From the NCBI GenBank assembly GCA_964468545.1, contig CAYXTT010000001.1, forward strand, positions 1,894 to 65,893: DNA of 64,000 nucleotides. The letters run 5' to 3'. The translations under genes and the position numbers were made by a program. The notes below the pieces were generated by a model. The model did not search any database, was not told the DNA's origin, and saw only the letters and a list, made by a program, of their open reading frames with translations. Below are positions 19,741 through 37,201 of the stretch, piece by piece (within the stretch, counting starts at the first letter, position 1; each line of letters begins with the position of its first letter). Source of the DNA: Candidatus Woesearchaeota archaeon. Its GTDB lineage: Archaea; Nanobdellota; Nanobdellia; Pacearchaeales; GW2011-AR1.

Positions 19741-19979
19741 CATTTCCTAACAGAAAAAACTTCACATTCAAAATCAAGATTTAATTCCTTGGCAACGTCT
19801 TCCTTCAACTTCAAAACATCAAATTCAATCTTCGCAGCCTCCAATTTCTCGACAATTTCATCTCGAGTATCTTTGCAAATAAAAACATTTTTCAACTTTT
19901 TCCCGCCCTTCAACGCCTGCCTCAACCCAAAAAAAACTTTCCCCCTTTCCATCGCTTCCGCCAAATCTTTTACACTCAT
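19740..19979 (-). CDS. rpl30e: Ribosomal protein L30e (L7Ae/L30e fold).
   Basis: GKVFFGLRQALKGGKKLKNVFIC. Conserved position downstream of rpoA. Its ATGA start overlaps the rpoA stop. Confidence 0.7.
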   Translation of the reverse strand: MSVKDLAEAMERGKVFFGLRQALKGGKKLKNVFICKDTRDEIVEKLEAAKIEFDVLKLKEDVAKELNLDFECEVFSVRK

Positions 19980-22900: not shown

Positions 22901-23416
22901 CCCATCACTAACCTTAACCAATCTCTCTCTAATCTCCGACGGAAACAATCTCCTTCTCCCGCTCCTAAAAGTCGTCGGCTTCTCCAGCCTCACCCTTTCC
23001 TGAATAATCCCACAATGCGGACACCTCTTCCCGTCCTTCGCCTTCTTAATTCTCATTACTAACCCCTTCGACAAATCCTTCTCATCCTTAATCAAAACTT
23101 TCCCACACGCCTCACAAGTGCACCTCAAAACCAAATCAATAATTGGTAAATACTTAATATGAATCACCGGCCGCGCCAGCTCAATCATCCCAGGATGACC
23201 AAGACATTCTTTCAACCGCCCTCCGCAAGTCCGACACCTCACTCCCGGGTCAATCGCACCAAGTCGCAAATCCATCAAACCACCGTCGACAGGATATCCA
23301 TCAACATCATAAAGTTCCGGCGTCACAATCTTCGCAACCGATAATTTCTTAATCTGCTCCGGATTCAACAACTGAAACTCCATTCCCTTAACTTGCTTCT
23401 TCACCGGCCTATTCAT
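19976..23416 (-). CDS. rpoA: DNA-directed RNA polymerase subunit A, with the A' and A'' parts fused in one reading frame. The track start 23434 is a TTG; the first ATG gives MNRPVKKQVKGMEFQLL.
   Basis: The N-terminal Zn motif CRTCGG...C and the A' catalytic regions. The frame continues through GVDGVDISE...GEASTQMVLNVFHSAGV into A''-type C-terminal motifs (VDGKHAMLVADTM). Confidence 0.9.
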   Translation of the reverse strand: MNRPVKKQVKGMEFQLLNPEQIKKLSVAKIVTPELYDVDGYPVDGGLMDLRLGAIDPGVRCRTCGGRLKECLGHPGMIELARPVIHIKYLPIIDLVLRCTCEACGKVLIKDEKDLSKGLVMRIKKAKDGKRCPHCGIIQERVRLEKPTTFRSGRRRLFPSEIRERLVKVSDGDLKILGINAATLRPESTILTLLLVPSVTVRPSITLESGERSEDDLTHKLSDIIRSNQRLWENLNAGAPEVIIEDLWDLLQYHVTTFFDNSIAKIPPARHRSGQPLKTITERIKGKEGRIRKNLAGKRVNYSARTVISPDLNMKLNEVGIPIEVAKILTVAERVTSVNMKRMKALVAKTSYPAANYIIRSDGKRKRITDDLREELVEELETGYIVERHLVDGDVVLFNRHPSLHRASLMAHFVKIIPGRTFRIHPATCGPYGADFDGDEMNIHAPQTEEARAEAKLLLNVNANLFSPKNNMNFIGCVKDAVSGNFILSESELNKEDATQLLYESGIKVGGLNKMNSGISIFEKIVPKEVVGIAHGISSKNGKFNATSFKTGRGDALRAADIKLGRDETMELLRQVFMLGTVFLSRTGFTLSADDLNVPDAVKKKTEKIIESAELKTKEIIENYYNKSLDLLPGKSAEETRETKILQVLNETRTEIGDAVKEGFPKDNLASKMIGSGASGSMLNITQIACSVGQQVLHGRRIDFGYTGRTLSFFRKDDLSPRARGFVYSSLMDGFRPDEFFFGAMTGRDGLMDVALRTPKSGYLYRRLANALQDLVMAYDGTVRDASNNIVQFVYGVDGVDISERHNNKKVAPGEAIGVVTAQSFGEASTQMVLNVFHSAGVAEMQVTQGLPRIIEILDARKLPKTPSMEIWLDKEHNNEKDARVVAEKIKEVKLKEVISGIGIDFGTKKIKVNIDEKALRSVHIGLEKVVEVLKIKGYSMKRLSDGFVLDMTKEDFKTIYKTKEKIKEVILTGVKKISQVLVVKRGKDFVILTAGSNLKDVLAFKGVDGNKVLSNDIHEVASVLGIEAARQLIINEINKIISSQGLAVDGKHAMLVADTMVSSGIVKGITRMGIISDKSSILARASFETPVKQFVQATKTGKKDKLASVIENIILNQPVPVGTGLPGLLVKVTGSLANKVKEKKK

Positions 23417-23432
23417 CTTACCGCCCCCAAAC

Positions 23433-23565
23433 AAAATCCGTGTTCGTCCATGTTAGTCCGTGTACCATTATTTCCAAAACTATAAGTTACATCAAGTTGC
23501 CCAACTCCTCCGAATGCCGAATGCCGAATGCCGAATGCCGCGAATGAAATTTCCGATTTCATTCG
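23433..23565 (+). repeat. Composite repeat element B in the rpoB-rpoA spacer. It has the decamer block AAAATCCGTGTTCGTCCATGTTAGTCCGTGT, an AAGTTACATCAAGTTGCCC segment, (CCGAATG)x3.5 and the hairpin GAATGAAAT-ttccg-ATTTCATTC.
   Basis: Seen in the sequence. The 3' hairpin arm overlaps the last two rpoB codons. Confidence 0.8.
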
Positions 23566-26500
23566 TACTTGTTTTTGAGTTCGAATTTAGTTAACAAATG
23601 CAAACCCTGCAACTCTTCAATCAACAACTTGAACGCATACGAAACCTCGACGGGCTCAACCTGATTCGAATGACAAAGCGAACAAACTTTCTTGTTATGA
23701 ATTTGGTCATCGATAACAATAGCCCCGCACTTCGTGCAAATATTTATCACAACCTTATCAGAATCATATCTCTCTTTCAATAACAGCGACGCTCCGTGCC
23801 CGACCAATGCCTCTTGCTCCATTTCTCCAAGTCTCAAAGCTCCACCTCGTGCCCGACCTTCAATCGGCTGTCGCGTCAACAACGCAATCTTCCCCGACGC
23901 CCGCGAATGCATCTTGTCCGCGACCATATATTTCAACTTCAAATAAAACATATTACCAATAAAAATCTTCACCGGCATCCTCTGTCCCGTAATTCCATTA
24001 TACATAACCTCTTTCCCATTCTCTCTAAACCCAAGCTTCTTCAAATTATTTTCCAAACTATCAATCTTCTCTCCAGAAAAAGCCGAAGCATCAACAATTC
24101 TTCCCGACAAAGCCGCAACCTTCCCAGCCAAAACATCCATCAAATAACCGACAGTCATACGCGACGGTATACCATGCGGATTAAACATAATATCCGGACG
24201 TATACCACTAATAGTAAATGGAACATCACACTCCGGCGCAATCATTCCAAGTATACCCTTTTGCCCATGAGGCACCGAAAATTTATCACCAATCTCGGGA
24301 ATCCTCAACTCTCTCGTCCTCACATGAACAACCATATTCCCCTCCTGATCCTGCGTCACAAAAACAGCGTCGACAATTCCAGTTTCTTCCTGCCTTATCG
24401 CTGAAGAATTCTCTTTTTTCGTCTGAATAGAAATCTCACGCGCCTCGCTCAAAAATTTAGGAGGACTAACCTTCCCAATAACAACTTCTCCCTCGACCAT
24501 CTCGGCCTCAGGAAACACAATTCCATCATCTTCCAAAAATCTATAATTCTCTTCAAGTCTATAACCAGAAACATCTTTATTCGGAATAGTAATCTCATCC
24601 TTAAGCCCACCCGCATAATTTAACTCAACCGAAGTATACGGCCTAAACCTCGAGCTCCTGCCAAATCCCCTATCAACCGAACCTCCATTCAAAACAGTAG
24701 CGTCCTCCATATTGTAACCTTCATAAGGCATGACAGCCAAAACAACATTCTGCCCAACCGGATGCACATCCAAAGTATCATAAATAAAACTTCTAACCAA
24801 CGGCTTCTGCGGATAATGCAAAAGCGAAACATCTGTATCAATTCTCACCGGAAAATTCCCAGCATAAATTCCAAGCCCCTGTCTATAAGCCCTCGAACCC
24901 CCCTTGACCATTCGCGCCGGCGGGTCATGGTCGCCAAACGGAATCAACGAAACACTAACTCCAAAAATATCTATAGCATCAACTTCCAAATGCGTATGTT
25001 CCTTCGTTAAATCTTTCTCATCCAAACAAATATAACAATCGTCCTCTTCGGCCGCGTCCAAATATTCCAAAATTCCCTTTTCAAACAAACCCTCCCAAGT
25101 CAAAACCCCGCTCTTAACCAATTCTAAATGCTCATTCTTCAATCTCGAAACTCCATCCTCGACGACAATCAACGGCCGAATCACACGACCAATTTCAGAA
25201 CTAATAAAAACCGTATCTAAAAATCTATCAAACCTCACCGAAACCTCAAACGGCAATCTTCCCTCTCTTCTAAAATTCCTAACCTTCCCAACAAATCCAT
25301 CAACATCATCAACAGCCCCGATAAACCTCCCGTTATAAAAAACATCAACAGCCCCTTCCACATCTCTCATCCCAGAATCCTTCAATACCCTCAAAACATT
25401 CTCATACTCTATCGTCGTCCTCGTAGAAATCCTCGCCAACAAAGCCAAATTTTTTCTCAATCCAATCTCTGTTCCCTCCGGCGTCTCAATCGGACAAAAC
25501 CTGCCATAATGCGTCGGATGCACAGTCCTCGCCGCAAAATTTTCTTGTTCACCCGGCAAAGTCGAAGTAACTCTCTGTAACTGCGACATAACCGCGAACG
25601 AATTATTTTTATCCATATTCTGCGTCACCCCGCTCCTCTCACCAATCCACGACCCAGTCGCAATCGCCGATTCAACTCGATGAGTAAACAAAGTCGACTT
25701 CGCAATCGTCTTAATCGAATAAAACTTCCTCCTTTTCATCGTCTTCTGCAAAGTGTGCTGCACCTCCCTCAAAAGAATATTAATATTAACCCTAAATAAA
25801 TCAGACAACAAATCCCCAGACAACCTCACTCTCTTGTTTGCGTAATGGTCCTTATCTGTCATCGCCGCACTCGGATTTTCCCTCGCAATATAAAACTGCT
25901 TAATAAACTTACAAAGTGTCCTCGCCTTCTCCATCCTCGATGCCTTATCTAAACCAATATGTGGCAAAAAATACGAATCAATTCTCTGCTTAACTCTATC
26001 AAGCATTTCCTTATTCGTCCCCTGCAACGAACTCTTCTCCGCAATCCACATCAACGCATCATTAACACTTCCAATCCCCGCAAACTCATAAAGATTAACA
26101 ACCAATCCATCCGTCTGCTTCCCAATAAATTTCACAATATCAGCGTCGCTGATCAAACCCAACGCCTTCAATAAAACAATCGCAGGAATATCCCTAAATC
26201 TCGAAAACGAAACCTCCAAAATTCCATAAGGACTCTCAACCAAAGAAACCGGAATTTTATACGCCCCTCTCTGCGAAAATAATCTCAGCATCAACCTATT
26301 CCTTGTTTTCTGCCATTCAACAAAAGTTTGATTCGACGCCAAATCCTCCGCCATCACCATCACTCTCTCATTTCCATTAATCAAAAAATAACCTCCATGA
26401 TCTCTCGAATCAATATAATTCTTCACTAAATCCTCGTCGCTCATCCCACTGAGATTACAAACTCCACTCTTAACCATAATCGGAATTCTCCCCAACTGAA

Positions 26501-26813
26501 CATCCTCGGTCTCAACCTGCCCCCCATAATTAATCGTCATCTCCATCCAAATCGGCGCCGAATAAGTCAAGCTCCTAAGTCTAACCTCCGCCGGCATAAC
26601 CAACCTCGAAGAACCATCCGCCTCGACAATATTGGGCTTCCCAACACGAATCTTCCCCAACTTAATTTCAAAATCATCCGTAGACAAAGAATCAGACAAC
26701 TCCGTCACAATCTCTTGCATCCTATTCTCAATAAAATCATTAAACGATTTTATATTCGACTCAACCAAAGAATGATTCTTCAAAAATTCTTTAACTAAAA
26801 TATGCTCAGTCAT
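23559..26813 (-). CDS. rpoB: DNA-directed RNA polymerase subunit B (unsplit).
   Basis: 1084 aa. Conserved RNAP beta regions, and a C-terminal Zn motif CTKCG...CSLC. Confidence 0.95.
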   Translation of the reverse strand: MTEHILVKEFLKNHSLVESNIKSFNDFIENRMQEIVTELSDSLSTDDFEIKLGKIRVGKPNIVEADGSSRLVMPAEVRLRSLTYSAPIWMEMTINYGGQVETEDVQLGRIPIMVKSGVCNLSGMSDEDLVKNYIDSRDHGGYFLINGNERVMVMAEDLASNQTFVEWQKTRNRLMLRLFSQRGAYKIPVSLVESPYGILEVSFSRFRDIPAIVLLKALGLISDADIVKFIGKQTDGLVVNLYEFAGIGSVNDALMWIAEKSSLQGTNKEMLDRVKQRIDSYFLPHIGLDKASRMEKARTLCKFIKQFYIARENPSAAMTDKDHYANKRVRLSGDLLSDLFRVNINILLREVQHTLQKTMKRRKFYSIKTIAKSTLFTHRVESAIATGSWIGERSGVTQNMDKNNSFAVMSQLQRVTSTLPGEQENFAARTVHPTHYGRFCPIETPEGTEIGLRKNLALLARISTRTTIEYENVLRVLKDSGMRDVEGAVDVFYNGRFIGAVDDVDGFVGKVRNFRREGRLPFEVSVRFDRFLDTVFISSEIGRVIRPLIVVEDGVSRLKNEHLELVKSGVLTWEGLFEKGILEYLDAAEEDDCYICLDEKDLTKEHTHLEVDAIDIFGVSVSLIPFGDHDPPARMVKGGSRAYRQGLGIYAGNFPVRIDTDVSLLHYPQKPLVRSFIYDTLDVHPVGQNVVLAVMPYEGYNMEDATVLNGGSVDRGFGRSSRFRPYTSVELNYAGGLKDEITIPNKDVSGYRLEENYRFLEDDGIVFPEAEMVEGEVVIGKVSPPKFLSEAREISIQTKKENSSAIRQEETGIVDAVFVTQDQEGNMVVHVRTRELRIPEIGDKFSVPHGQKGILGMIAPECDVPFTISGIRPDIMFNPHGIPSRMTVGYLMDVLAGKVAALSGRIVDASAFSGEKIDSLENNLKKLGFRENGKEVMYNGITGQRMPVKIFIGNMFYLKLKYMVADKMHSRASGKIALLTRQPIEGRARGGALRLGEMEQEALVGHGASLLLKERYDSDKVVINICTKCGAIVIDDQIHNKKVCSLCHSNQVEPVEVSYAFKLLIEELQGLHLLTKFELKNKYE

Positions 26814-26832
26814 TTTTCACCTCTTTAAAAAA

Positions 26833-26892
26833 CGACCAGCGACCAGCGACCAGCGACCAGCGATATGAAAAAATCAAAGATCTTTTCATATT
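26833..26892 (+). repeat. Mini-element E in the rpoH-rpoB spacer. (CGACCAG)x4 is followed by the hairpin ATATGAAAA-(11 nt)-TTTTCATAT.
   Basis: Seen in the sequence. It lies between the rpoH stop and the rpoB Shine-Dalgarno GAGGTGA. Confidence 0.8.
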
Positions 26893-27080
26893 ACCACCCT
26901 ATAATAAATTTCATCCGCACGAAAAATTTTAACAACATCTCCCTTTTCGCACCCCTCAGGAAGCCCCGCATCACTCTTAGAAATCTTCGGCAACTGCGCC
27001 AAAGAAATATTAAATTCCTTAAGAACCTTCTCAGCCTCGCTCGAACTCAACTTCACATGTTTGGATTGGAGCACGTGCAT
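26886..27080 (-). CDS. rpoH: RNA polymerase subunit H (Rpb5 homolog).
   Basis: 64 aa. ...LPKISKSDAGLP...GDVVKIFRADEIYYRVVI is typical of RpoH. Confidence 0.9.
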   Translation of the reverse strand: MHVLQSKHVKLSSSEAEKVLKEFNISLAQLPKISKSDAGLPEGCEKGDVVKIFRADEIYYRVVI

Positions 27081-27171: not shown

Positions 27172-28968
27172 TCACAAATCTACAGAAACCATTTTATAAA
27201 ATTCAATCAAATGCGGAATTAAAACTCTACTCCAAGTTTCATACAGTTTATTCGACCCAGAATTCTCCAAAATACTTTTTATATTAACCATTCGCCCAGA
27301 AGAAATAGAACTCTCTCTCGGAATAATTTCACCATTAGTACGAATTGCGTAAACCAACCCAAAATGAACTTTATCGACAGGATTATCTGGCCGATATAAA
27401 GTCCCAAGAAATACCGGCTGACCAACATCGCCAGAAATTTTAACCTCTTCGCCAACTTCCCTCTCTAATCCAGACACAATAAAATTAGGCCCATCTTTTC
27501 TACCAATATGCCCACCAATACCAAGAGAATGCTTCCCAAATAATCTTTCATCGCCATAGTCCTTGATGTCCTTTGCTCTAACATAGCTAAAAACCTCCCT
27601 CTTATCATTAAAACCCAAAACATAAGGAATCAACTGCAACACTAAATCATCTCTCTCGCAATCATAACGAGAATGAAAGAAACCCTCTCCCTCAATTAAA
27701 TCGAACAACTTTTTCTTTTTCTCATCCGAAACAAACTCAAAACCTTCTCGCTCACCCCTAGTCGCCAACAACAATCTCGCATCCTGAACCAAAACATCCC
27801 TGCCTAATTTCGCATAATTCTTAGCAGCCATTCCAAAGTCAAACGACTTAAAATATTTCGCAGTCTTTGGACCTTTCTGAAACTGATAATGGGAACCACT
27901 TCTATCATCCCCATAAAGCTTATCTGGAAACTCAGTCCTAAAGACAGCAATCTCACCAAGAGACATACCATGATGAATCTCTAAATCCGTCGCTTCCTCC
28001 GATGTAATTTCAAAAACCAAATCCCCATCAAAACCATTATCAATAAAACCGGCCCTATGAAGCGATCCACTAATACCCTGATGAGAATGCGCTTTCAATT
28101 CAACATTACAACATTCAGGCACATTCAAAACTTCTTCCGAAGAAACCAAATAATACTCACCTCTTTTAATCTCTAAGACCCCTCCTTTCGCATTCATTGG
28201 TTCAAAATAATCTTCAGCCGAATACTTTTCGCTTTTAGTTAAATCAATCACATTCGGATTTCTTCTCGCTCTTAATGCGACAATGCCCTCGCTATTCCTT
28301 CCCTCCACATCAGAATGAATCTGCAATGCCCCTCCCATATCAGGAGTATCAATAGCCTTCCCATCTACATAATATAAAATAGGATTACTCGACCACGATT
28401 CCACAATTTCCCTCGGCGTCAACTGCGCATTAAACCCTTTAAAAAATCTCAACTGATTCAAACTAATCCCAGGAAAAAGACCAAGATTAAAAGCCAACGG
28501 CTGAAACAAAAGCCACATCATCAACTCTCTGTCTCCACCATAAGAACTAAGCGCTTCATCAAAAGAAGAATTAAAATCTGTTAAAAATCTTGTATTAGGG
28601 AAAACTCTCCCAATACTACTTTTCGGAGAAGATTCAATCATCCTAAATCCATCAAAATGAACACGCTGAACAAGCGGAAGCAAATAAGTAAATCCTATTT
28701 TCGATTCAAACCCACCAGAAATATCAACCCTTTGTCTTCTTCTCGCCGGAAGCTCAAGCAACGACCTATAAACCGCCTTATCTCTACTTGGTCTAAACAA
28801 AGCCTTATCAGTATCAATCACATATACCTCCTCTCCAATCGTCGGCTCAAACGAACTCGGCTGAATTCTAGATTCATCAAATTCAGGATCAACAATAGCT
28901 CCGCTCCTCGCTAACTCTCGAATTTCCTGAGAAACAAGACAACAATCATCTAAACTCATAAAAATCAA
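27172..28968 (-). CDS. Large dCTP-deaminase-family (dUTPase-fold) protein with a duplicated barrel, plus about 230 extra C-terminal residues that may carry a Nudix-like box.
   Basis: The N-terminus LVSQEIRELARSGAIVDPEFDESRIQPSSFEP matches the Dcd start (ILSD.DI...I.P....IQPsSiDLRLG). Also SSIGRVF and LHRAGFIDNGFDGDLVFEI (Dcd gfIDpGf.G.itLE). The C-terminal GGHIGRKDGPNFIVSGLEREVGEEV resembles a Nudix box. Confidence 0.6.
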   Translation of the reverse strand: MIFMSLDDCCLVSQEIRELARSGAIVDPEFDESRIQPSSFEPTIGEEVYVIDTDKALFRPSRDKAVYRSLLELPARRRQRVDISGGFESKIGFTYLLPLVQRVHFDGFRMIESSPKSSIGRVFPNTRFLTDFNSSFDEALSSYGGDRELMMWLLFQPLAFNLGLFPGISLNQLRFFKGFNAQLTPREIVESWSSNPILYYVDGKAIDTPDMGGALQIHSDVEGRNSEGIVALRARRNPNVIDLTKSEKYSAEDYFEPMNAKGGVLEIKRGEYYLVSSEEVLNVPECCNVELKAHSHQGISGSLHRAGFIDNGFDGDLVFEITSEEATDLEIHHGMSLGEIAVFRTEFPDKLYGDDRSGSHYQFQKGPKTAKYFKSFDFGMAAKNYAKLGRDVLVQDARLLLATRGEREGFEFVSDEKKKKLFDLIEGEGFFHSRYDCERDDLVLQLIPYVLGFNDKREVFSYVRAKDIKDYGDERLFGKHSLGIGGHIGRKDGPNFIVSGLEREVGEEVKISGDVGQPVFLGTLYRPDNPVDKVHFGLVYAIRTNGEIIPRESSISSGRMVNIKSILENSGSNKLYETWSRVLIPHLIEFYKMVSVDL

Positions 28969-29066
28969 AACTTTGTTATTTTATTTAAACACTTGTATCT
29001 TAAAAAATATATTTCAAAAAACAACTCTCGGTAACTTTTTAAATTGAAATCCCTCATAAAATTTAT

Positions 29067-29141
29067 GGCTCCGTAGCTCAGCCTGGTTAGAGCACTGGAC
29101 TTTTAATCCAGGTGTCGGGGGTTCAAATCCCCTCGGGGCCA
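29067..29141 (+). tRNA. tRNA-Lys (anticodon TTT).
   Basis: A cloverleaf can be drawn. The anticodon loop is CTTTTAA, the T-loop is TTCAAAT and the acceptor is GGCTCCG/CGGGGCC. Confidence 0.85.
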
Positions 29142-29220
29142 TATAAGGAATTGAAGATTCCTTTTCTATTCTGAATATATTTAAATTCACGACACCATGG
29201 TATCGGCGAACAATTCGCTT

Positions 29221-29292
29221 TGAGTTGTGCTATTTTAATTATTACACAACGAAATGCAAATTGCGAGTAAGATTCAAATCCCCTCAGAGTCA
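29221..29292 (+). repeat. Degenerate decamer-element tail (TGTGCTATTTT...TTACACAA) followed by a partial copy of the tRNA-Lys T-loop and 3' stem (GATTCAAATCCCCTC).
   Basis: Sequence similarity to elements A and D, and a 14/15-nt match to the tRNA-Lys T-arm 125 nt upstream. Confidence 0.4.
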
Positions 29293-29297
29293 CCCCC

Positions 29298-30944
29298 CTA
29301 CATCCTAAAAAACTTAGCCAACCTCGGGCCATTTTGCCTATGATAATGAGATCCCTTTTCAGAAGAACCATACAACTCCCTCGGAGAACTCTTCATAGGA
29401 TAAAACTTAAAGCTCGCAATTTTCTGTCCATCTCTCAATAAAAACGGCTGCCCAAAATTTCTAACCTCAAGAGTCGCCTGCGCATTCCAATTAGGATCAA
29501 AAAATCCCGCATAATGAACTCTCACCTCGCCCGAATCAGTTTCAATATCCATCATCTCGGAACAAAAATCCTTAGGAACACTAACAACCTCCTTGCTCGA
29601 CAAAATATAAAAAGAATTAGGCCCAACGATAATCTGCTTCTTATCTTCCCCAGACAAATATACCTTATCAAAATACTCCGAAAAAAGATGGTCCCTCCGC
29701 GAAAGATCAATAGGAGGAGTATTATGTTTCGCCACAAAACCAGGATTATTTTCATCCAAATCCAAACTCGCAGAAACAATATTATCATCGACAATAAAAG
29801 AATTTCCAGACAAACCATCCCCCGTCTTTGAATCAAACAAAATCCCCTGACTCCTATTAAGTTCATTCAATTCAGACGCATCAAGACAATCAATCCCAAA
29901 ATCAAAAAGTCTCATCTGATTAAGACAGTCCCCCTCATGAACAATGATATCAAAAGAACGCGGATAAACCTCTATCCAAAGATCCCCCTTGTAACCAAAA
30001 GGAATCTTATCAAAAGACCTACCCCCCTCGACAATCAACCTAACATGAACATCTATTCTACCAATAGAACTCTTGGGATTAATCCGTCCCCCTATCCCCT
30101 CGGGCAAATTAAGACTTTCTTGCAATTTAAAAACATAAATGCACCCCTTATGCAAAAACCCATTTTTACTCAAATCAATATCATAAGAACAATTACGCTC
30201 CAAAAAAGAATCAAAATTAGTTCCAGAAGGAACAGAGGAAAAGGGCAAACAAAAACCCCTACTCCCCAACCTCAAATCCAAAGAAGATGGCTGAATTTGA
30301 CTTTCATTTATCTTATTATTTGAACAAATCACCCTCCTATCAATTAAAGACCTTATCCCATCATCAGAATAAACACCCTTCCCTTCACCCCCCTCCCCAA
30401 CAATCCTTCTCAAAATCCTCTCGACCTTCCCATGTAAATCAGTAATCGTCCAATCATTTTTAAAAACATAATCTGCCATCTCCACACATCTTTTCAAATC
30501 CTGTTTATTCGAATCACCAGACATCATCTCTCTCTGCTCACTAGCCACAAACTCATCAAACGAAACACCATCGACCATCTCTCCCCTCTCGACAACCCGC
30601 GCATACCTCGTTTCAACATCAGCGTCAATCGCAAACAAAACAAAATTCCCTTTTTTCTTTAGCGCCTCAACCTCACTCGGACACCTAACACTCTCAATGA
30701 CACAATCCCCTCCTTCCTTCTCTGCCTTTTTATACAATTCCTCGACGATATACCCCACGCCAAACTTTTCTCTCAAATCATTAGCAACTAAAACCATATT
30801 CACTCTATTCAAACTCAACCCTCTCTTTAAAATCTCTTCACTCAAAAAATCTCTAACAGAACAATGTTTAAACCCCCTGCTCTTAAGATATTCAACAACC
30901 ACTCCTTTCCCCGCACCCAAAGTCCCAGTAACCCCAATAATCAT
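29298..30944 (-). CDS. Fusion protein: an N-terminal P-loop nucleotide/nucleoside-monophosphate kinase domain joined to a C-terminal duplicated dCTP-deaminase-family domain.
   Basis: P-loop GVTGTLGAGKG, about 190 aa. Then SQIQPSSLDLRLG, GRINPKSSIGRIDVHV, VHYAGFFDPNWNAQATLEV, and a C-terminal GSHYHRQNGPRLAKFF tail shared with 27172-28968. Confidence 0.65.
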   Translation of the reverse strand: MIIGVTGTLGAGKGVVVEYLKSRGFKHCSVRDFLSEEILKRGLSLNRVNMVLVANDLREKFGVGYIVEELYKKAEKEGGDCVIESVRCPSEVEALKKKGNFVLFAIDADVETRYARVVERGEMVDGVSFDEFVASEQREMMSGDSNKQDLKRCVEMADYVFKNDWTITDLHGKVERILRRIVGEGGEGKGVYSDDGIRSLIDRRVICSNNKINESQIQPSSLDLRLGSRGFCLPFSSVPSGTNFDSFLERNCSYDIDLSKNGFLHKGCIYVFKLQESLNLPEGIGGRINPKSSIGRIDVHVRLIVEGGRSFDKIPFGYKGDLWIEVYPRSFDIIVHEGDCLNQMRLFDFGIDCLDASELNELNRSQGILFDSKTGDGLSGNSFIVDDNIVSASLDLDENNPGFVAKHNTPPIDLSRRDHLFSEYFDKVYLSGEDKKQIIVGPNSFYILSSKEVVSVPKDFCSEMMDIETDSGEVRVHYAGFFDPNWNAQATLEVRNFGQPFLLRDGQKIASFKFYPMKSSPRELYGSSEKGSHYHRQNGPRLAKFFRM

Positions 30945-31061
30945 AAAAAGAAATCCGCCCCCAACCTTATAAAAACTATTATACTAAACTATACAAAACC
31001 CAACTAAGCCTAAACCCACAAACACAGACAAACCACACAACATTACCCAGCCCCCATAAAC

Positions 31062-31709
31062 CTAACACCTAACACCCGTCGAACCCCACGCCCCATCTCC
31101 TCTCGTCGTCTCGCTCAACTCCTCAACAACCTCGACCTCAACCGTCGCAACCGGAGCAATAACAATCTGCGCAACTTTATCCCCCGCATTAATCTCAAAA
31201 TCCTCGTCGCCAGTATTCAAAACCACAACGCCATACTCTCCTCTATAACTACACTCAACAACCCCACCCAAAATACAAATTCCCTTCTTCAACGCCAACC
31301 CACTCTTCCCTCGAATATTCGCCCAATAACCTTCCGGCAACTCCATCGCAATCCCCGTCGACACCAAAACTCTTTTCCCCGCACCGACAACATAATCCTC
31401 AGTCGAAAACAAATCCATCGCCGCATCACCCTCGTGCGCATACCTCGGCACAACCGCATTCCCCTTCAACTTCTTAACTTTAATTTTAACCCCACTCTTT
31501 CCAATTAACTCAAACCTCTTAACTCTCCGACCATCTTCAAAAATTTTATATCCCTCAAATTCCTCCAAATCTCTAACCCAAACCTGCCCATCCCCATAAA
31601 GCGCCCGATAAACAACAACATATCTCAAACTATCACAATCTTTCGCCAACGCAACAATTTCATATTTACCTCCTTTAAAATGCCTATATCTCTCTCCTAC
31701 TTCAACCAT
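31062..31709 (-). CDS. dut: dUTP diphosphatase with an N-terminal DUF1653-like domain.
   Basis: N-terminal YRHFKGGKYEI...VVYRALYGDGQVWVRDLEEF (DUF1653 pattern). dUTPase motifs AAMDLFS, RGKSGLALK, GGVVECSYRGE and RGDGAWGSTG. Confidence 0.8.
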   Translation of the reverse strand: MVEVGERYRHFKGGKYEIVALAKDCDSLRYVVVYRALYGDGQVWVRDLEEFEGYKIFEDGRRVKRFELIGKSGVKIKVKKLKGNAVVPRYAHEGDAAMDLFSTEDYVVGAGKRVLVSTGIAMELPEGYWANIRGKSGLALKKGICILGGVVECSYRGEYGVVVLNTGDEDFEINAGDKVAQIVIAPVATVEVEVVEELSETTRGDGAWGSTGVRC

Positions 31710-31786: not shown

Positions 31787-32578
31787 TCAAACCCTAACCC
31801 CAACTTCCTCAAAATAATCCGCTATACTCTTTCTCAACTCCTTCAAAAATTCCTCACTCACATCTTTCTCGTCGACAAAAGAAGAATCAACAAACTTACC
31901 CTTATTCTTAAACCCCTGCAAAAAAAACCTCCTCGGCTTTCCCCTACAAACCTCATTTATCCACCTCGCCATCTCAACGACACTCTCCTTTGAATGCAAC
32001 CGCCCAACAACCGTCGTTCTAAACTCATAACCCCTGCTAAAATCCGTGTTAGTCCGTGTTAGTCCGTGTGCTAAATTTAATTCCTTATCAAGTTGTCCAA
32101 AATCATAAATCATCTTCATCGACCTTTCCACCGACGACAAATCAACGCTAACGCCAACAATTTTGGAATAATCCTCACGACAACCCTTAACATCCATCGC
32201 AACATAATCCACCAATCCTTCGTCAATCAACTCTTTAAGCCGAGAAGGAAACGACCCATTCGTATCAATCTTCACCTTAAACCCCATCTCTTTTACCCGA
32301 CGAACAAAATCAAAATCCAAACTCATCAACGGCTCACCCCCACTAATACAAACCCCATCCAACTTTCCAACTCGACTCTTTAAAAAATTCAAAACCTCTT
32401 TTTCTGCGAATTGCGAATTGCTAATTGCTAATTGCGCATCAACGGAGTTGACGAGTTCCGGATTATGACAAAACCCACAACGAAAATTACACCCGCACAA
32501 AAAAACAACACAACAAATTTCCTCCGGATAATCAATCGTCGAAACCTTTTGCAACCCAGCAATTTTCATTCTCCACAT
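31787..32578 (-). CDS. nrdG: Anaerobic ribonucleotide reductase activating protein (radical SAM). It carries two in-frame repeat insertions.
   Basis: CGCNFRCGFCHNPE radical-SAM cluster motif. The heptamer repeat encodes AQLAISNSQFA and the decamer repeat encodes GLTRTNTDF. Confidence 0.8.
   Translation of the reverse strand: MWRMKIAGLQKVSTIDYPEEICCVVFLCGCNFRCGFCHNPELVNSVDAQLAISNSQFAEKEVLNFLKSRVGKLDGVCISGGEPLMSLDFDFVRRVKEMGFKVKIDTNGSFPSRLKELIDEGLVDYVAMDVKGCREDYSKIVGVSVDLSSVERSMKMIYDFGQLDKELNLAHGLTRTNTDFSRGYEFRTTVVGRLHSKESVVEMARWINEVCRGKPRRFFLQGFKNKGKFVDSSFVDEKDVSEEFLKELRKSIADYFEEVGVRV
32041..32072 (+). repeat. (TCCGTGTTAG)x3 decamer block (AATCCGTGTTAGTCCGTGTTAGTCCGTGTGCTA), in-frame inside nrdG.
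   Basis: It is identical in type to the heads of elements A, B and D. An AAGTTGTCC segment follows, as in element B. Confidence 0.8.
32406..32451 (+). repeat. (GCGAATT)x2(GCTAATT)x2 heptamer block plus a short hairpin TCAAC-gga-GTTGA, in-frame inside nrdG.
   Basis: Seen in the sequence. Confidence 0.75.
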
Positions 32579-32680
32579 TCACAAGCAAACATCATTCTAT
32601 CCTTGAACTCCGCAAACTTCCCCTCGTTCCATTGCGCAGTCGGTCGCAAATACCCGACAACTCGACTCCACACTTCACAT

Positions 32681-34897
32681 TTAGTCCTCTCCATCTTCTC
32701 CTCCGAAATTTAATTTAAGTTTCATCGGAACCAAAACTTCATGCCCAATTTTTGACCCCGAAACAATACCATCCTCCTCGATAAAAATCGACGACCCAAC
32801 GCTCTCATCAATAATAATCTCCTCCGCCATTTCCTTCTTGCTGCTCTCAACCTCAATCGCAACAACCTCCCGTTCAGCGTCGCACTTCGGACAATACTCA
32901 TGCTCACCCGCAAGATAACCATGAATCGGACAAATCGAAAATGTCGGCGTAATCGTAAAATATGGCAAATGATAATTATTAGAAATCTTCCTCACCATAT
33001 TCTTAACCGCGTCCTTCGTCATCCTCTCACCAACAAAAGTATGAAACACTGTCCCGCCGGTATACTTACATTGAAATTCATCCTGCAAATCCAACGCCTC
33101 AAAAACATCGTCGGTAAAATTCACCGGCAAATGCGACGAATTCGTGTAATACGGCTTAGCCCCTTTCTGAACCGCCACCTCGTTTGCAACAATAATCCTC
33201 CCAAATCTTTTCTTATCCATCCTCGCAAAACGATAAGTCGCACCCTCACCCGGCGTCGCTTCCAAATTATAAATATTCCCCGTCTCCTCCTGGAACTCCG
33301 CCAACTTATCCCTCATAAAATCCAAAATCTTCAAAGCAAATTCCCGCCCTCTCTCTGTCGCAATGCTTTCCCCCGGCATAAAATTCAAAATCGCCTCATT
33401 CATCCCAAGCAACCCAATCGTCGCAAAATGATTTTTCCAATACTGCCCAAATCTCTGGTATACCTGCCTCAAATAAAACTTACTATAAGGATACAACCCC
33501 ACCTTCGTGAAATTCTCAATCGCCTTCCTCTTAATTTCAAGACTCTCTTTCGTTAACTCCATCAATCTATCCAGTCGCCCGATAAAATCCTCCTCGCTCG
33601 TCGACACATATCCCAACCTCGCCATATTAATCGTTACAACTCCAATCGAACCAGTCTGTGGATTCGACCCAAACAAACCGCCACCACGTTTTTTCAAAGT
33701 AGTATTATCAATTCTCAACCGGCAACACATCGACCTCGCGTCCTCCGGCTTCATATCAGAATTAACAAAATTCGAAAAATACGGTATACCATACTTCGCC
33801 GTCATCTCCCAAATCAAATCATACTCCGGATTATCCCAGTCAAAATCTTTCGTAATATTATAAGTCGGAATCGGGAAAGTAAAAACTTGTCCCGACGCAT
33901 CACCATCCATCATACACTCCGCAAACGCCCGATTCAACATATCCATCTCTGGCTTAAATTCCTTGTATGTCTCAATCTGCGGCTGACCACCAATAATCAC
34001 ATGTTCGTCCATCATATAATCTGGCACTTTCAAATCCATTGTAATATTTGTAAAAGGGGTTTGAAATCCTGTTCTCGTCGGCACCGCCATATTATAACAA
34101 AAACTCTGAATCGCTTTTTTTACTTGCTTGTAATCCAGATTCTCATATCTAATAAATGGAGCCAATAATGTATCAAAATTCGAAAACGCCTGCGCCCCCG
34201 CACTCTCTCCCTGCAAAGTATAAAAAAAATTCACTACCTGCCCCAATGCCGCATTAAAATGTTTTGGTGGCCTACACTCAACTTTCCCTTTCACGCCCCT
34301 AAATCCAACCATCAACAAATCTTTCAAATCCCACCCAACACAATATGCCCCAAGACAATCTAAATCATGAACATGAATATCTCCGGCCTCATGTGCTTTC
34401 CTAATCGCCTCTGGATAAATCCGCCTCATCCAATAATTAGAAATAATCTTCCTCTTAATATACTCATTCAACCCCTGCAAACTATAACCCATATTTGAAT
34501 TCTCCTTTACCATCCAATCGTCTAACCCAATATAATCCTCGACCGCCTCAATTGTATCAAACAATCCCTTAACCTTCCTCAACTCATCATGACTCTGCCT
34601 ATAAAGAATATACGCCTTCGCAACCTTCGCGTGCCCCTCTTCAATCAAAATCTTCTCAACCAAATCCTGAACTTCCTCGACCTCTGGAATCCCAAACTCT
34701 CCGTGAATCTCATTAAGTTTCTCGATGACCATATCTGCCAACCACACTGGTCTCTCTCTATCTTCTCCTCCAACCGCCCGCGCCGCTTTCCAAATCGCCT
34801 CCGCAATCTTCTCTTTCTGAAAAAACACAACACTCCCATCTCTCTTCCTAATTTTCTTTACCATCTTCCACCTCGCCATATTTTTTATCTTCTTCAA
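32681..34897 (-). CDS. nrdD: Anaerobic ribonucleoside-triphosphate reductase, class III. The real start is probably MVKKIRKRDG at about 34864.
   Basis: The N-terminal ATP-cone VKKIRKRDGSVVFFQKEKI and NrdD core motifs (RTGFQTPFTNITMDL). The C-terminus has a CPIHGY...CPKC Zn ribbon and Gly-radical region, then an acidic tail. Confidence 0.9.
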   Translation of the reverse strand: MKKIKNMARWKMVKKIRKRDGSVVFFQKEKIAEAIWKAARAVGGEDRERPVWLADMVIEKLNEIHGEFGIPEVEEVQDLVEKILIEEGHAKVAKAYILYRQSHDELRKVKGLFDTIEAVEDYIGLDDWMVKENSNMGYSLQGLNEYIKRKIISNYWMRRIYPEAIRKAHEAGDIHVHDLDCLGAYCVGWDLKDLLMVGFRGVKGKVECRPPKHFNAALGQVVNFFYTLQGESAGAQAFSNFDTLLAPFIRYENLDYKQVKKAIQSFCYNMAVPTRTGFQTPFTNITMDLKVPDYMMDEHVIIGGQPQIETYKEFKPEMDMLNRAFAECMMDGDASGQVFTFPIPTYNITKDFDWDNPEYDLIWEMTAKYGIPYFSNFVNSDMKPEDARSMCCRLRIDNTTLKKRGGGLFGSNPQTGSIGVVTINMARLGYVSTSEEDFIGRLDRLMELTKESLEIKRKAIENFTKVGLYPYSKFYLRQVYQRFGQYWKNHFATIGLLGMNEAILNFMPGESIATERGREFALKILDFMRDKLAEFQEETGNIYNLEATPGEGATYRFARMDKKRFGRIIVANEVAVQKGAKPYYTNSSHLPVNFTDDVFEALDLQDEFQCKYTGGTVFHTFVGERMTKDAVKNMVRKISNNYHLPYFTITPTFSICPIHGYLAGEHEYCPKCDAEREVVAIEVESSKKEMAEEIIIDESVGSSIFIEEDGIVSGSKIGHEVLVPMKLKLNFGGEDGED

Positions 34898-35240
34898 ACC
34901 CGCTCCACTTAATCATAGTTCCCCCTCGCTGAGCATCAACAAAATTAAACCCATTCGGATATCTCTCCTTCAACTTGTCAATATTCCCCCGCAAACAATC
35001 CTCTAACTTCCACCCAAAAAAATTACAAATCATAGCCGCATACCACATCATGTCCCCAATATTTTCTTTAATCCCGTCCTTCACCGCTTCATTTTTATGC
35101 GCAAAGGTTTTCTTAATACAACTCGCGATATCACCTGCCTCACCTGCAATCCCGAGCCCCCATGTCGCAATCTCCAACTCTGGCTCATTAAATTTCTTCG
35201 ACGTTCTCTTACAAGCCTCCTGATATTCATTCAATTCCAT
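34848..35240 (-). CDS. MazG-like nucleoside triphosphate pyrophosphohydrolase domain protein.
   Basis: 130 aa, EACKRTS...GLGIAGEAGDIASCIKK (MazG/HisE-like helical NTP-PPase pattern). It sits between nrdR and nrdD. Confidence 0.55.
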   Translation of the reverse strand: MELNEYQEACKRTSKKFNEPELEIATWGLGIAGEAGDIASCIKKTFAHKNEAVKDGIKENIGDMMWYAAMICNFFGWKLEDCLRGNIDKLKERYPNGFNFVDAQRGGTMIKWSGFEEDKKYGEVEDGKEN

Positions 35241-35277
35241 TTTATTTTTCCCTATCCCAAACCGCCAAGTCCCGATA

Positions 35278-35305
35278 CACCGCCAACCCGAAGAAACTCA
35301 AACTC
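35278..35305 (-). terminator. Hairpin GAAACTCAA-actcat-TTGAGTTTC immediately downstream of the nrdR stop.
   Basis: A 9-bp inverted repeat. An adjacent 18-nt direct repeat (AGTCCCGATACACCGCC) is also found inside the nrdR 3' end. Confidence 0.4.
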
Positions 35306-35744
35306 ATTTGAGTTTCTTTATCTCCTCCTTAAAATCATCAATATCCCCAAAGTCCCGATACACCGCCGCAAACCGAATATACGCAACCTTGTCAATCTTC
35401 TTCAGCTTATTCATAACCATCTCGCCAATCTGCGAACTTTTGATATCCTTCCCCTTCGCAACCCGATAAACATTCGCCTCAATATCATCAACGACCCCAT
35501 CTATCTCCTCACTCGTAAACGGCCGCTTCTGCAAATTCTTGTCAACCCCAACAAACAACTTCTCCCGCAAAAACTTTTCCCGACGCCCATCCTTCTTAAT
35601 AACATTCAAATCCAACTCGACTCGCTCATACGTCGTAAACCGCTTCCCACATTTCAAACACTCCCTTCTCCGACGAGTCACAGAATCACAATCACGCTTA
35701 TCCGTCACCTTCGTCTCAACAGCAGTACAATATGGACACCTCAT
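35304..35744 (-). CDS. nrdR: NrdR transcriptional repressor (Zn ribbon plus ATP-cone).
   Basis: MRCPYCTAVETKVTDKR...CLKCGKRFTTYE and the ATP-cone VIKKDGRREKF. Confidence 0.85.
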   Translation of the reverse strand: MRCPYCTAVETKVTDKRDCDSVTRRRRECLKCGKRFTTYERVELDLNVIKKDGRREKFLREKLFVGVDKNLQKRPFTSEEIDGVVDDIEANVYRVAKGKDIKSSQIGEMVMNKLKKIDKVAYIRFAAVYRDFGDIDDFKEEIKKLK

Positions 35745-35756
35745 TTAATAGTTAAT

Positions 35757-35879
35757 ACAAGATATTGTATCTCGCACCCCTCTTTGCCACAATTACTTGT
35801 GGTCGTAAGCAATCACTAACCAAATGACTATTTAAAGATTGTTGTAGCCCACCATACATTTTCGTTCACTATAGTTAAC
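35757..35879. promoter_or_regulatory. Two NrdR-box-like palindromes in the nrdR-glyA spacer. They are TACAAGATATTGTA at 35757-35770 and GTTCACTATAGTTAAC at 35864-35879.
   Basis: Imperfect palindromes resembling the NrdR-box consensus acaCwAtATaTwGtgt. The first lies 10-30 nt upstream of the nrdR ATG. Confidence 0.35.
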
Positions 35880-35959
35880 AATACAAACCGACAGTTACGT
35901 TTTTCTAATGATTACGCAAATTTAAATACTCAAAAAAATCATCGACGAAACAAATCTTC

Positions 35960-37201
35960 TCAATAAACCCCAAACTTCCCACAAATATCCCGAACCTCTC
36001 CCTTAACTCTAACGCGAACAGCCTCATCAAAAATATTTTCAATAACGTCCGCAATCCAATTCCCAACAACAACCATTTCATCCTCCTTCATCCCCATCGT
36101 CGTCAAAATCGGAGTCCCAAGTCGAATTCCGGAAGGATTAAACGGGGTCGACGGATCAAACGGAATCGTATTCGCATTAACAACAATCCCCGCATCCTCC
36201 AACGCAACCGCAACTTCCTTCCCTTTCCCCGCCTCACCGACGACAACCGTCTTAATCAAATCAATCAAAATCAAATGATTATCACTCCCGCCACTAACCA
36301 AATTAATTCCTCTCTTCTTCAATGTCTCTGCCAAAACCTTACAATTCTTAACAATCTGCAAAGAATACTCCTTAAACCCCGACGTCAACGCCTCCCCAAA
36401 ACAAACCGCCTTCGCCGCAATCGTATGTTCATGAGGTCCACCCTGCAACCCCGGAAAAACCGCCTTATCAACAGCTTTACCAAACTCATCCTTACACATT
36501 ATAATAGCACCCCGCGGTCCCCTCAAAGTTTTATGCGTTGTCGTCGTCACAAAATCAAAATCAGGAAATGGAGAACAATGGATTCCTGAAGCAACCATCC
36601 CCGCAATATGAGAAATGTCAGCCAAACAATATGCCCCGACCTCCCGAGCAATCGAAACAAACCCCCGAAAATCAATCTCCCGTGGATAAGCCGTCGCCCC
36701 ACAAACAATCATCTTCGGCCTCTCCGCCAAAGCAATCTCGCGAACCCTCGCCATATCAATAAAACCATTTTCACCGACGCCATAAGAAACAAACTCATAA
36801 TCCTTCCCAGAAAAATTAACAGGCGACCCATGCGTCAAATGCCCACCATGACTCAAATCCATTCCCAAAATCTTATCGCCCTTTTCCAAAACCGCCGCAT
36901 AAACCGCCATGTTAGCCGGACTCCCAGAATTCGGCTGCACATTCACATGCCCCGCCCCAAACAATTTCTTCGCCCGCTCAATCGCCAAATTCTCAATCTT
37001 GTCAACAAACTCATTCCCCTGATAATACCGCTTCCCAGGATAACCTTCCGCATACTTGTTATTCAAAACCGAACCACACGCCGCCAAAACATCCTTCGAA
37101 CAAAAATTCTCCGACGGTATCATATTCAAAGTCGTCTTCTGCCTGCCCAACTCACCGACGACAATATCATTCACCTCTTTATCCGAAATCCAAAAAGTCA
37201 T
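35960..37201 (-). CDS. glyA: Serine hydroxymethyltransferase.
   Basis: The PLP-binding region TTTTHKTLRGPRG and the SHMT length and pattern. Confidence 0.9.
   Translation of the reverse strand: MTFWISDKEVNDIVVGELGRQKTTLNMIPSENFCSKDVLAACGSVLNNKYAEGYPGKRYYQGNEFVDKIENLAIERAKKLFGAGHVNVQPNSGSPANMAVYAAVLEKGDKILGMDLSHGGHLTHGSPVNFSGKDYEFVSYGVGENGFIDMARVREIALAERPKMIVCGATAYPREIDFRGFVSIAREVGAYCLADISHIAGMVASGIHCSPFPDFDFVTTTTHKTLRGPRGAIIMCKDEFGKAVDKAVFPGLQGGPHEHTIAAKAVCFGEALTSGFKEYSLQIVKNCKVLAETLKKRGINLVSGGSDNHLILIDLIKTVVVGEAGKGKEVAVALEDAGIVVNANTIPFDPSTPFNPSGIRLGTPILTTMGMKEDEMVVVGNWIADVIENIFDEAVRVRVKGEVRDICGKFGVY

Follow-up and report, generated by a model that had tools for sequence, protein, structure and literature searches.

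Overall organisation of the locus

The DNA analysed here is a 64,000-nucleotide stretch of contig CAYXTT010000001.1 (hereinafter, the window). It contains three genes of predicted nucleotide metabolism on the minus strand, hereinafter designated A, B, and C. Gene A (27172-28959) encodes a predicted two-barrel dCTP deaminase (DCD) fused to a TM1382-type Nudix domain, as assigned by Pfam, AlphaFold2, and Foldseek. Gene B (29298-30944) encodes a protein of 548 amino acids (aa), in which a predicted P-loop nucleotide kinase is fused to a two-barrel dCTP deaminase (Pfam, NCBIfam). Gene C (31062-31709) encodes a DUF1653 domain (aa 7-67) followed by a trimeric-type dUTPase (aa 85-212; Pfam). A and B are separated by a tRNA-Lys(UUU) gene on the opposite strand (29066-29142, plus strand; ARAGORN; Rfam tRNA, 71 bits).

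The window is archaeal. Specifically, Pfam identifies rpoH, rpoB, a fused rpoA, a NusA-like KH protein, S12, S7, EF-2, and EF-1alpha just downstream of the three genes, while replication factor C genes are located upstream of them. The host is an uncultured, Pacearchaeota-like DPANN archaeon, and the genes rpoH-rpoB-rpoA (19976-27080) mark the locus as core archaeal chromosome. The block from nrdG to tmk-thyX (31787-39450), upstream of C, is on the same strand as A, B, and C, and its order is identical in the related loci L001, L002, L006, L008, and L088 (related loci and proteins are cited by L and P numbers). A preliminary description of this DNA had named the neighbours as nrdG, nrdD, a MazG-like gene, nrdR, a serine hydroxymethyltransferase (SHMT) gene, and tmk-thyX, all of which are borne out by Pfam. 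No further DCD, zinc deaminase, or dUTPase is present within the 64-kb window, this contig being the only one in view.

Gene B fuses a P-loop kinase to a two-barrel dCTP deaminase

The kinase domain of B (aa 1-185; 30390-30944) is matched by AAA_18, PRK08356, PDB entry 3lw7 (SSO1041), and the PADLOC dCTPase profile. It contains a P-loop of the adenylate-kinase type (GTLGAGKG, aa 7-14), an ESVRC motif (aa 84-88), and a lid with conserved Arg residues (DADVETRYARVVER, aa 107-120). The P-loop Lys of the adenylate-kinase type is retained, together with the DxD motif and five invariant Arg residues. Among 10 kinase orthologs, residues K13, R31, R58, R87, D107, D109, R113, R116, and R120 are invariant.

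Directly after the P-loop GKG, the residue differs with the fusion partner. Kinases fused to DCD-type deaminases have GKGV or GKGA (B, 30900-30905, aa 13-15; P0002, P0023, and P0037) or, in P0026, GRGV, while those fused to zinc deaminases have GKGT. This residue change in the DCD fusions may reflect altered or lost phosphotransfer.

The rest of B is made up of two DCD barrels. The N-terminal barrel (29859-30386; Pfam, alignment to E. coli Dcd) carries the motif PKSSIGR (aa 290-296) and keeps a Glu in LWIEVYP (aa 322-328). The C-terminal barrel (29301-29858; Pfam, alignment, Foldseek match to 2r9q with TM-score of ~0.9) carries AGFFDPNWNAQATLE (aa 479-493) and ends in the lid LYGSSEKGSHYHRQNGP (aa 524-540). 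The Pfam scores are far above gathering, with 166.7 bits for DCD_N (gathering 21.4) and 136.1 bits for DCD_C (gathering 22). B also scores 297.2 bits on NCBIfam PRK07559/NF005734, over the equivalog cutoff of 283. By these profiles, B is a predicted member of the two-barrel dCTP deaminase family (PF06559 + PF22569). The AlphaFold model of B (predicted local distance difference test score, pLDDT, of 84.7) matches 2R9Q with Foldseek TM-scores of 0.88-0.91 (E=7e-37), and the first domain of the model matches SSO1041 (3lw7), a Sulfolobus adenylate-kinase-related protein. Thus, the preliminary reading of 29298-30944 as an N-terminal P-loop nucleotide kinase (GVTGTLGAGKG) joined to a dCTP deaminase is confirmed by AAA_18, DCD_N/DCD_C, and NCBIfam.

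The exact B protein occurs on 10 contigs, and the places shown comprise one ENA assembly and three separate Logan runs. Because these sources are separate, the fusion is not an assembly artefact. One ortholog with the same architecture, P0002, comes from another metagenome and is 72% identical. In an exhaustive search of 1.84 billion protein cluster representatives, no other representative spans both halves of B. The fusion of this kinase with a two-barrel DCD is therefore truly rare, with one cluster among the 1.84 billion representatives. The genome itself is outside the species-representative set, in which the best kinase match is 70% identical.

Gene A fuses a two-barrel dCTP deaminase to a Nudix domain

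The start of A is probably the ATG at 28959, which gives a protein of 595 aa; the TTG upstream, at 28968, is the mechanical start of the open reading frame (ORF). The protein starting at 28959 is identical to database protein P0122 and to a 595-aa gene call.

The N-terminal barrel of A (28390-28959; alignment to E. coli Dcd) carries SPKSSIGR (aa 111-118) and lacks the catalytic Glu position, where the sequence reads MWLLFQP. The C-terminal barrel (27832-28389) carries AGFIDNGFDGDLVFE (aa 303-317), in which D307 corresponds to Dcd D128 and E317 to Dcd E138, and it ends in the lid LYGDDRSGSHYQFQKGP (aa 348-364). Both DCD_N (67.7 bits) and DCD_C (72 bits) are above gathering. On NCBIfam NF005734, A scores 140.1 bits, under the equivalog cutoff of 283. 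Judged by these scores, A appears to be a divergent relative of the NF005734 family, forming a family of its own.

The C-terminal part (27175-27831) is a TM1382-type Nudix-fold domain, as indicated by phmmer against 3e57 and by Foldseek. The preliminary description had noted about 230 residues with a Nudix-like REVGEEV box at the end of 27172-28968; sequence and fold now identify this tail as a domain of ~220 aa of the TM1382 type. Specifically, these ~220 aa match PDB 3e57 ("Tm1382, a putative Nudix hydrolase") with a phmmer E-value of 3.8e-16. An AlphaFold model of A built with 113 homologs has pLDDT of 93.5 and predicted TM-score (pTM) of 0.86. This model matches 2r9q with TM-score of 0.91 (E=1e-26) and 3e57 with TM-score of 0.85, and its Nudix domain also matches 2fkb, NUDT12, Ndx1, and RppH. 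The motifs of the domain are HSRYDCE (aa 429-435), GIGGHIGRKDG (aa 480-490), the box core LEREVGEEV (aa 498-506), PVDKVHFG, and YETWS. Relative to the Nudix box GX5EX7REUXEEXGU, the REVGEEV core is present, with Asn at the position of the upstream Glu (where the family consensus has Asp) and Lys at that of the last Gly. Among 113 A-family proteins, R500 of the box never varies, and conservation of E501, E504, and E505 is 90% or higher. The Pfam NUDIX profile scores 13.8 bits on A, compared with a gathering score of 21.1.

The A family comprises at least 290 proteins of ~600 aa with the full architecture and 47-63% identity to A, from Nanoarchaeota, Woesearchaeota, and Pacearchaeota genomes. 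Some members are labelled "NUDIX family phosphoesterase/dCTP deaminase" by JGI. The family to which A belongs is annotated but biochemically uncharacterised. What had been described as a giant paralog is the common form in DPANN archaea and not the odd one. In the contexts examined, A-family genes are adjacent to thyX, tmk, nrdR, a class II/III reductase, CTP synthase, or a kinase-zinc-deaminase gene. Two members carry an additional C-terminal nucleoside diphosphate kinase (NDK), and this DCD-Nudix-NDK arrangement reads as a fused pathway that would lead from dCDP through dCTP and dUTP to dUMP. Phage homologs of the Nudix domain exist at 26-34% identity, with annotation too poor to indicate function.

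Predicted catalytic layout of the two deaminases

Each barrel was aligned separately to E. coli Dcd, the reference sequence being verified against PDB 1XS1. The textbook dCTP-deaminase motifs seen earlier in both large genes map onto the catalytic motifs of Dcd. Specifically, SSIGR in the N-barrels of A and B (KSSxGR) corresponds to Dcd R110/S111/S112/R115, AGFxD...E in the C-barrels corresponds to Dcd A124/D128/E138, and the GSHYxxQxGP tail of the C-barrels, a Tyr/Gln lid, corresponds to the C-terminal lid of Dcd. The C-barrels of both proteins lack the Ser/Arg motif. Across the 113 A-family proteins, S111, P112, K113, S114, G117, and R118 in the N-barrel, and D307, E317, Y349, Y358, and Q361 in the C-barrel, are invariant.

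Because the catalytic residues are split between the barrels and are conserved in this way, the two barrels of a chain most likely combine to form a single, composite active site, to which the N-barrel would contribute the Ser/Arg motif and the C-barrel the Asp/Glu and the lid. By analogy, such a site would resemble that of the monomeric herpesvirus dUTPases, which are weak structural matches of the B model in Foldseek.

The duplicated barrel proposed earlier is present in both A and B. It is the hallmark of a known family (PF06559 + PF22569; NF005734/PRK07559) with a structure from Agrobacterium tumefaciens, PDB 2R9Q. This two-barrel architecture is common to 2R9Q, A, and B (TM-score ~0.9). 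The 2R9Q family stands alone at ~365 aa, whereas B adds the N-terminal kinase and A adds the C-terminal Nudix domain. A and B had also been called a paralog pair. Both are indeed predicted two-barrel dCTP deaminases, but they are not a recent pair: with 27% identity between their deaminase modules, they are old paralogs.

Gene C is a dUTPase fused to DUF1653

C was described as a dUTPase fused to DUF1653 beside the two large genes, consistent with Pfam (69.5 bits for DUF1653 and 103 bits for dUTPase) and with the NCBIfam dUTP diphosphatase models NF001862 (141.2 bits, cutoff 103) and TIGR00576 (140.7 bits, cutoff 102.55). DUF1653 (31500-31709, minus strand, in the window) is fused to dut or located directly upstream of it in L002, L006, and L088, which suggests that its role is connected with dUTPase. 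There are two DUF1653 copies in L002 (8322-8815), and the copy in L088 is at 6967-7260.

Deaminase modules are displaced in place on an orthologous kinase

The same gene order recurs in every related contig examined (L001, L002, L005-L009, L011, L016, L020, and L088), namely tmk/thy, glyA, nrdR, (mazG), nrdD, nrdG, dut, a deaminase gene, tRNA-Lys, and rpoH-rpoB-rpoA. Proteins encoded in the same slot after dut have N-terminal domains with 57-77% identity to the kinase of B. The pairs of RpoB and kinase identity are 95/77, 88/71, 87/71, 86/70, 84/68, 83/65, and 63/50%. Kinase identity drops in step with RpoB identity, the behaviour expected of orthologs.

The type of deaminase fused to this kinase does not track RpoB identity. 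The commonest form is a zinc dCMP-type deaminase, found in L005, L007, L008, L009, L016, and L020. The closest relative, L006 (RpoB 95% identical), has a single-barrel DCD fused to the kinase. The window and L001 have a two-barrel DCD fused to the kinase, and L002 and L088 have a two-barrel DCD without the kinase. Thus, the slot shows non-homologous displacement of modules in place, with two unrelated deaminase folds and three modules. B is a lineage-specific chimera, in which the zinc deaminase on the orthologous kinase was replaced by a two-barrel DCD, and it is a rare, novel variant of the kinase-deaminase fusion with the deaminase fold swapped.

The L006 protein P0023 (8001-9062) has a single-barrel DCD that is substituted at the positions of Dcd S111, R115, and D128 (GKNSLAKLG, FLHPG) and has no C-terminal lid. 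Genes for ThyA and for a separate zinc deaminase adjoin it. From these substitutions, the deaminase module of P0023 looks like one that is decaying.

The kinase family extends well beyond this lineage, with at least 554 genome loci in DPANN, the candidate phyla radiation (CPR), and Bacteroidales. Most of the 80 loci fetched have a zinc deaminase beside the kinase, and in one Saccharibacteria genome it is beside Tmk-ThyX. Close kinase homologs (52-58% identity) are very common in Bacteroidales and CPR/Patescibacteria (L012-L087), and in most of the fetched loci the kinase is fused to a zinc dCMP-type deaminase or has one as its neighbour. That these groups share the kinase with DPANN was unexpected.

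Proteins of ~345 aa in which the kinase is fused to a dCMP-type deaminase (DPANN, CPR, and Bacteroidales; P0045 and P0096) carry the databases' names "AAA family ATPase" or "dCMP deaminase". They share with B the orthologous kinase and the slot after dut, and differ from it in having a zinc deaminase where B has a two-barrel DCD. Both domains of this zinc-deaminase form are covered by the PADLOC defence model (178 bits), whereas in B only one is. The defence enzymes and the core-locus enzymes therefore belong to one superfamily.

A probable housekeeping module with a defence-like kinase

Defence and housekeeping had been considered equally plausible for these genes. Our results favour housekeeping, in view of synteny and native composition, and leave defence unsupported. 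A, B, and C are likely a resident thymidylate-precursor module rather than a defence or mobile module. Synteny with nrd/thyX in related genomes, proposed earlier as a check that would make the genes metabolic, is seen in every relative examined; such synteny with nrd/thy and RNA polymerase genes argues against defence. The three genes share with rpoB and nrdD their skews at third codon positions (GC skew, ~+0.75; AT skew, -0.44 to -0.6). Because this composition equals that of core genes, recent acquisition is unlikely.

The fusion of a kinase to a dCTP deaminase had been likened to a known antiphage architecture. The antiphage dCTP deaminase consists of a kinase and a zinc-dependent cytidine-deaminase domain, and the nucleotide-binding motif of its kinase is essential (Tal et al., 10.1101/2021.04.26.441389). 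We found no description in the literature of a role for the kinase domain of the defence enzyme beyond its being essential. AvcD of Vibrio cholerae likewise has a layout of kinase-like and deaminase domains. B shares with the antiphage enzyme a homologous N-terminal P-loop kinase and the common logic of a kinase-like domain joined to a dCTP-deaminating enzyme. The likeness ends there: the deaminase of the antiphage enzyme has the zinc cytidine/dCMP-deaminase fold, while that of B has the unrelated dUTPase-like DCD fold, and Pfam finds no PF00383 (zinc deaminase) match in B. The antiphage enzyme is found in defence islands and is activated by infection, whereas B is in a conserved dNTP (deoxynucleoside triphosphate)-synthesis block. 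The antiphage enzyme also has extra N- and C-terminal regions. Consistent with this, aa 1-185 of B match only positions 155-337 of the 630 positions of the PADLOC dCTPase profile (E=4.3e-17), and aa 75-185 match only positions 103-213 of NCBIfam antiphage_deaminase NF041025, with 34.9 bits (E=7.7e-9) against a cutoff of 400.

We considered whether B is an archaeal antiviral dCTP-depletion enzyme built on the DCD fold, which would be inactive until infection and would then starve viral DNA synthesis. The homology of its kinase to the defence-protein kinase, the requirement for the nucleotide-binding motif in the defence enzyme, the great rarity of the fusion, and the quick change of slot content are in line with such a role. 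This role is nevertheless highly improbable, given that the kinase segment alone matches the defence profiles, that B sits between dut and rpoH, where the kinase-deaminase gene lies in each of the relatives examined, and that its composition is native. Neither PADLOC nor Pfam analysis of the neighbours revealed defence genes in the window, the kinase segment of B being the only PADLOC match. We accordingly rejected the antiphage reading of B, as well as a viral or mobile origin, for which a scan of viral contigs yielded no relatives of B.

A dual role is conceivable, in which the kinase-deaminase of the slot, B included, is a housekeeping enzyme whose kinase-like domain doubles as a virus-responsive switch for dCTP collapse. 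We regard it as very unlikely. If true, it would mean that bacterial antiphage dCTP deaminases originate in a core dNTP-synthesis operon, and that depletion immunity can use deaminases of either fold. There is better support for a milder version, in which the kinase would be a fold-independent functional partner of dCTP deamination and the defence enzymes would have been recruited from the housekeeping family.

The tRNA-Lys gene and copies of its 3' end

The tRNA-Lys gene is fixed in the slot in seven lineages, including L001, L002, L005, L007, L008, and L088. In the window, it is followed by a degenerate direct copy of its 3' end (29273-29292, plus strand), which is identical at 17 of 20 positions (0 chance matches expected) and abuts the stop codon of B. 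The partial 3'-end repeat that had been placed 125 nt away is thus real, but the gap between tRNA and copy is 130 nt (151 nt start to start). The spacer contains no ORF, and the Rfam scan scored only the tRNA itself.

Relatives have similar copies of the last 18-25 nt of the tRNA, 16-160 nt downstream, and each copy fits its own tRNA. Specifically, there is one perfect copy in L001 (11669-11714), two perfect copies in L005 (~10010-10190), one copy with one mismatch in L008 (~11130-11250), and the degenerate copy in the window (within 29143-29297). In L005 and L008, a shared motif, TTTGAAC..ACGACAAGTCGGGG, comes after the copies, and the window spacer contains a related one. The copies look like attachment-site (att)-like scars or miniature remnants of an integrative element targeting tRNA-Lys. 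An intact element was not found. The motif GGCCATTTGAACNNACGACAA beside the copies has 0 matches in viral contigs and 3 unrelated coding-sequence matches in metagenome contigs.

The tRNA repeat had been taken as a hint of past integration. The tRNA copy is genuine, and relatives have such copies too, but the ~130 nt that it encloses contain no cargo, and both deaminase genes are outside the repeats. That the deaminase pair is the cargo of an element integrated at tRNA-Lys, with the repeat as its att scar, is scarcely credible. The genuine copy, the recurrence of copies with a shared motif in relatives, and the variable interval from tRNA to rpoH (gene A, an LpxC-like gene, or nothing) would fit such an event. 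However, the repeats enclose only ~16-130 nt and no gene; A is on the 5' side of the tRNA and B is beyond the distal copy, so that neither is bounded by repeats. Moreover, Pfam detects no integrase in the neighbourhood, the codon-position composition is identical to that of core genes, and the motif searches in viral and metagenome contigs gave nothing relevant.

A proposed route from dCTP to dTMP precursors

We infer all enzymatic activities, as well as the substrates of the Nudix and kinase domains, from homology and gene context. Class III reductases act on triphosphates. NrdD/NrdG (class III) would accordingly reduce CTP to dCTP. With dCTP as the direct reductase product, deamination of dCTP is a logical path to dUMP. 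A and B, as distantly related two-barrel deaminases, would convert dCTP to dUTP, and DUF1653-Dut would hydrolyse dUTP to dUMP. The fused Nudix domain of A probably also converts dUTP to dUMP, which would make A a two-domain enzyme from dCTP to dUMP. In some relatives of A, NDK would extend the route to begin at dCDP. The dUMP would then pass to ThyX, with methylene-tetrahydrofolate from SHMT, and further to Tmk. The kinase of B would most likely phosphorylate a cytosine (deoxy)nucleotide for the deaminase, or balance the dCTP/dTTP branch point.

The net reaction proposed for A is that of the bifunctional dCTP deaminase-dUTPase of M. jannaschii and M. tuberculosis (1OGH, 2QXX), with which A shares a homologous barrel core. 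The bifunctional enzyme is a single-barrel homotrimer that performs both steps in one active site, whereas A would use a separate, fused Nudix domain. TM1382 (3E57), a clear homolog of the C-terminal domain of A in sequence and fold, is itself a stand-alone, putative hydrolase. By COG assignment, this domain may also be homologous to B. subtilis YmaB. YmaB is a Nudix protein encoded with ribonucleotide reductase (RNR) genes, and preliminary dNTP pyrophosphohydrolase activity has been reported for it (PMC5960316). Our literature search found nothing relevant on the biochemistry of two-barrel DCD, COG4112, TM1382, or DPANN kinase-deaminase fusions.

Several points weigh against this assignment of the three genes to a thymidylate-precursor route. 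The names of the two-barrel DCD, the TM1382-type Nudix domain, and the kinase family rest on homology. Dut and a MazG-like pyrophosphatase are already in the cluster, and the Nudix domain may act on a substrate other than dUTP. The view is confined to this contig, and other dcd, cmk, or ndk genes may exist elsewhere in the genome. The kinase of B and its closest relatives have Val or Ala in place of the usual Thr after the P-loop GKG, and one relative (P0026) has Arg in place of the P-loop Lys (GRGV); in the DCD fusions, the kinase could therefore have a regulatory function, binding nucleotide without catalysis. In addition, the content of the slot turns over fast between close relatives, which is a trait of accessory genes.

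A related concern is that one of the two paralogs may be non-functional as a dCTP deaminase. The DCD of A, for instance, could be a dCTP/dTTP-sensing module for its Nudix domain, or the kinase of B could be a pure allosteric sensor. The score of A (140 bits against 283 at the equivalog cutoff), the lost Glu position in its N-barrel, the Val/Ala substitution in B and its near relatives, and P0023, a single-barrel DCD with catalytic substitutions and no lid, which indicates that module decay occurs in the slot, all point in this direction. We consider it unlikely, as K113, S114, R118, D307, E317, Y349, Y358, and Q361 show little or no variation among 113 A-family proteins, the score of B is over the equivalog cutoff, and the catalytic-type Lys, Asp, and Arg residues of the kinase are invariant.

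Implications for kinase-deaminase fusions

On the housekeeping reading, an architecture that resembles a defence system belongs to core metabolism. The kinase domain by which antiphage dCTP deaminases are recognised is widespread in DPANN, CPR, and Bacteroidales, where it is a housekeeping partner of cytosine-nucleotide deaminases, and defence annotation pipelines keyed on the kinase domain could over-call. The locus is a natural experiment, in which the same kinase in the same slot is combined with three deaminase modules of two unrelated folds. Because the same kinase is found with unrelated deaminase folds, its role is probably tied to the reaction or pathway, and not to one deaminase structure, which bears on the unexplained requirement for the kinase in the defence enzyme.

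DCD-Nudix proteins, some of them extended by NDK, form a conserved, uncharacterised family that may lead from dCTP to dUMP in minimal genomes that depend on class II/III reductases. The combination had been said to match no standard Dcd/Dut arrangement. This is true with respect to textbook organisms, but the layout is the norm in this archaeal lineage, and only the fusion of the kinase with a two-barrel DCD is rare. Textbook pathways are unchanged, and the importance of the findings is moderate. The in-place fold swap on a conserved kinase, together with the link between core-locus and defence kinase-deaminases, merits specialist attention.

Neighbouring genes and base composition

Downstream of A, Pfam identifies rpoH (26886-27080), rpoB (23559-26813), and a fused rpoA (19976-23434), all on the minus strand. 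Most archaea encode RNA polymerase subunit A in two parts, A' and A''. In the window, rpoA encodes a single 1152-aa protein with Rpb1 domains 1-5, and it is fused likewise in L001, L002, L007, and L088.

Upstream of C, the minus strand carries nrdG (31787-32578), a 42-aa glycyl-radical ORF (32566-32694; ORF list), nrdD with an ATP cone (32681-34897), a MazG-like pyrophosphatase gene (34848-35240), nrdR (35304-35744), glyA/SHMT (35960-37201), and the tmk-thyX fusion (37198-39450), the genes other than the 42-aa ORF being assigned by Pfam. The glycyl-radical motif of NrdD (..WSRVVGYLRP..) is encoded in the separate 42-aa ORF, in another frame, with a 14-nt overlap with the end of the 738-aa nrdD. 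The stop codon of nrdD (32681-32683) is inside this overlap. A 40-aa "NRDD" ORF is called at the equivalent position in L001, L002, L004, L006, L007, and L088. In this lineage, NrdD has either a conserved split, coupled re-initiation, or a programmed frameshift.

NrdR is typically bacterial. In all these archaeal loci, the NrdR repressor gene, encoding a zinc ribbon and an ATP cone, adjoins the RNR genes. The Tmk-ThyX fusion has 750 aa, and its ThyX part of ~520 aa has two Thy1 matches, which suggests that the ThyX part is tandem-duplicated. Thy1 proteins of 556 and 583 aa are present in relatives (L089, L090). L001 and L006 have ThyA in place of the ThyX of the window, so the type of thymidylate synthase is also swapped among close relatives. 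L001 also has a DHFR-SHMT fusion.

Nearly all genes in the window are on the minus strand, and the GC skew of the plus strand is strongly negative (-0.42 overall). At third positions of the coding strand, the GC skew is ~+0.75 and the AT skew is ~-0.5. Codons ending in C or A are nearly absent, and the pattern is lineage-wide (also L001, L002, L006, L007, L008, and L088). Such extreme strand composition would fit C-to-T pressure acting strongly on the coding strand, a noteworthy point given the abundant dC-to-dU enzymology of the organism.

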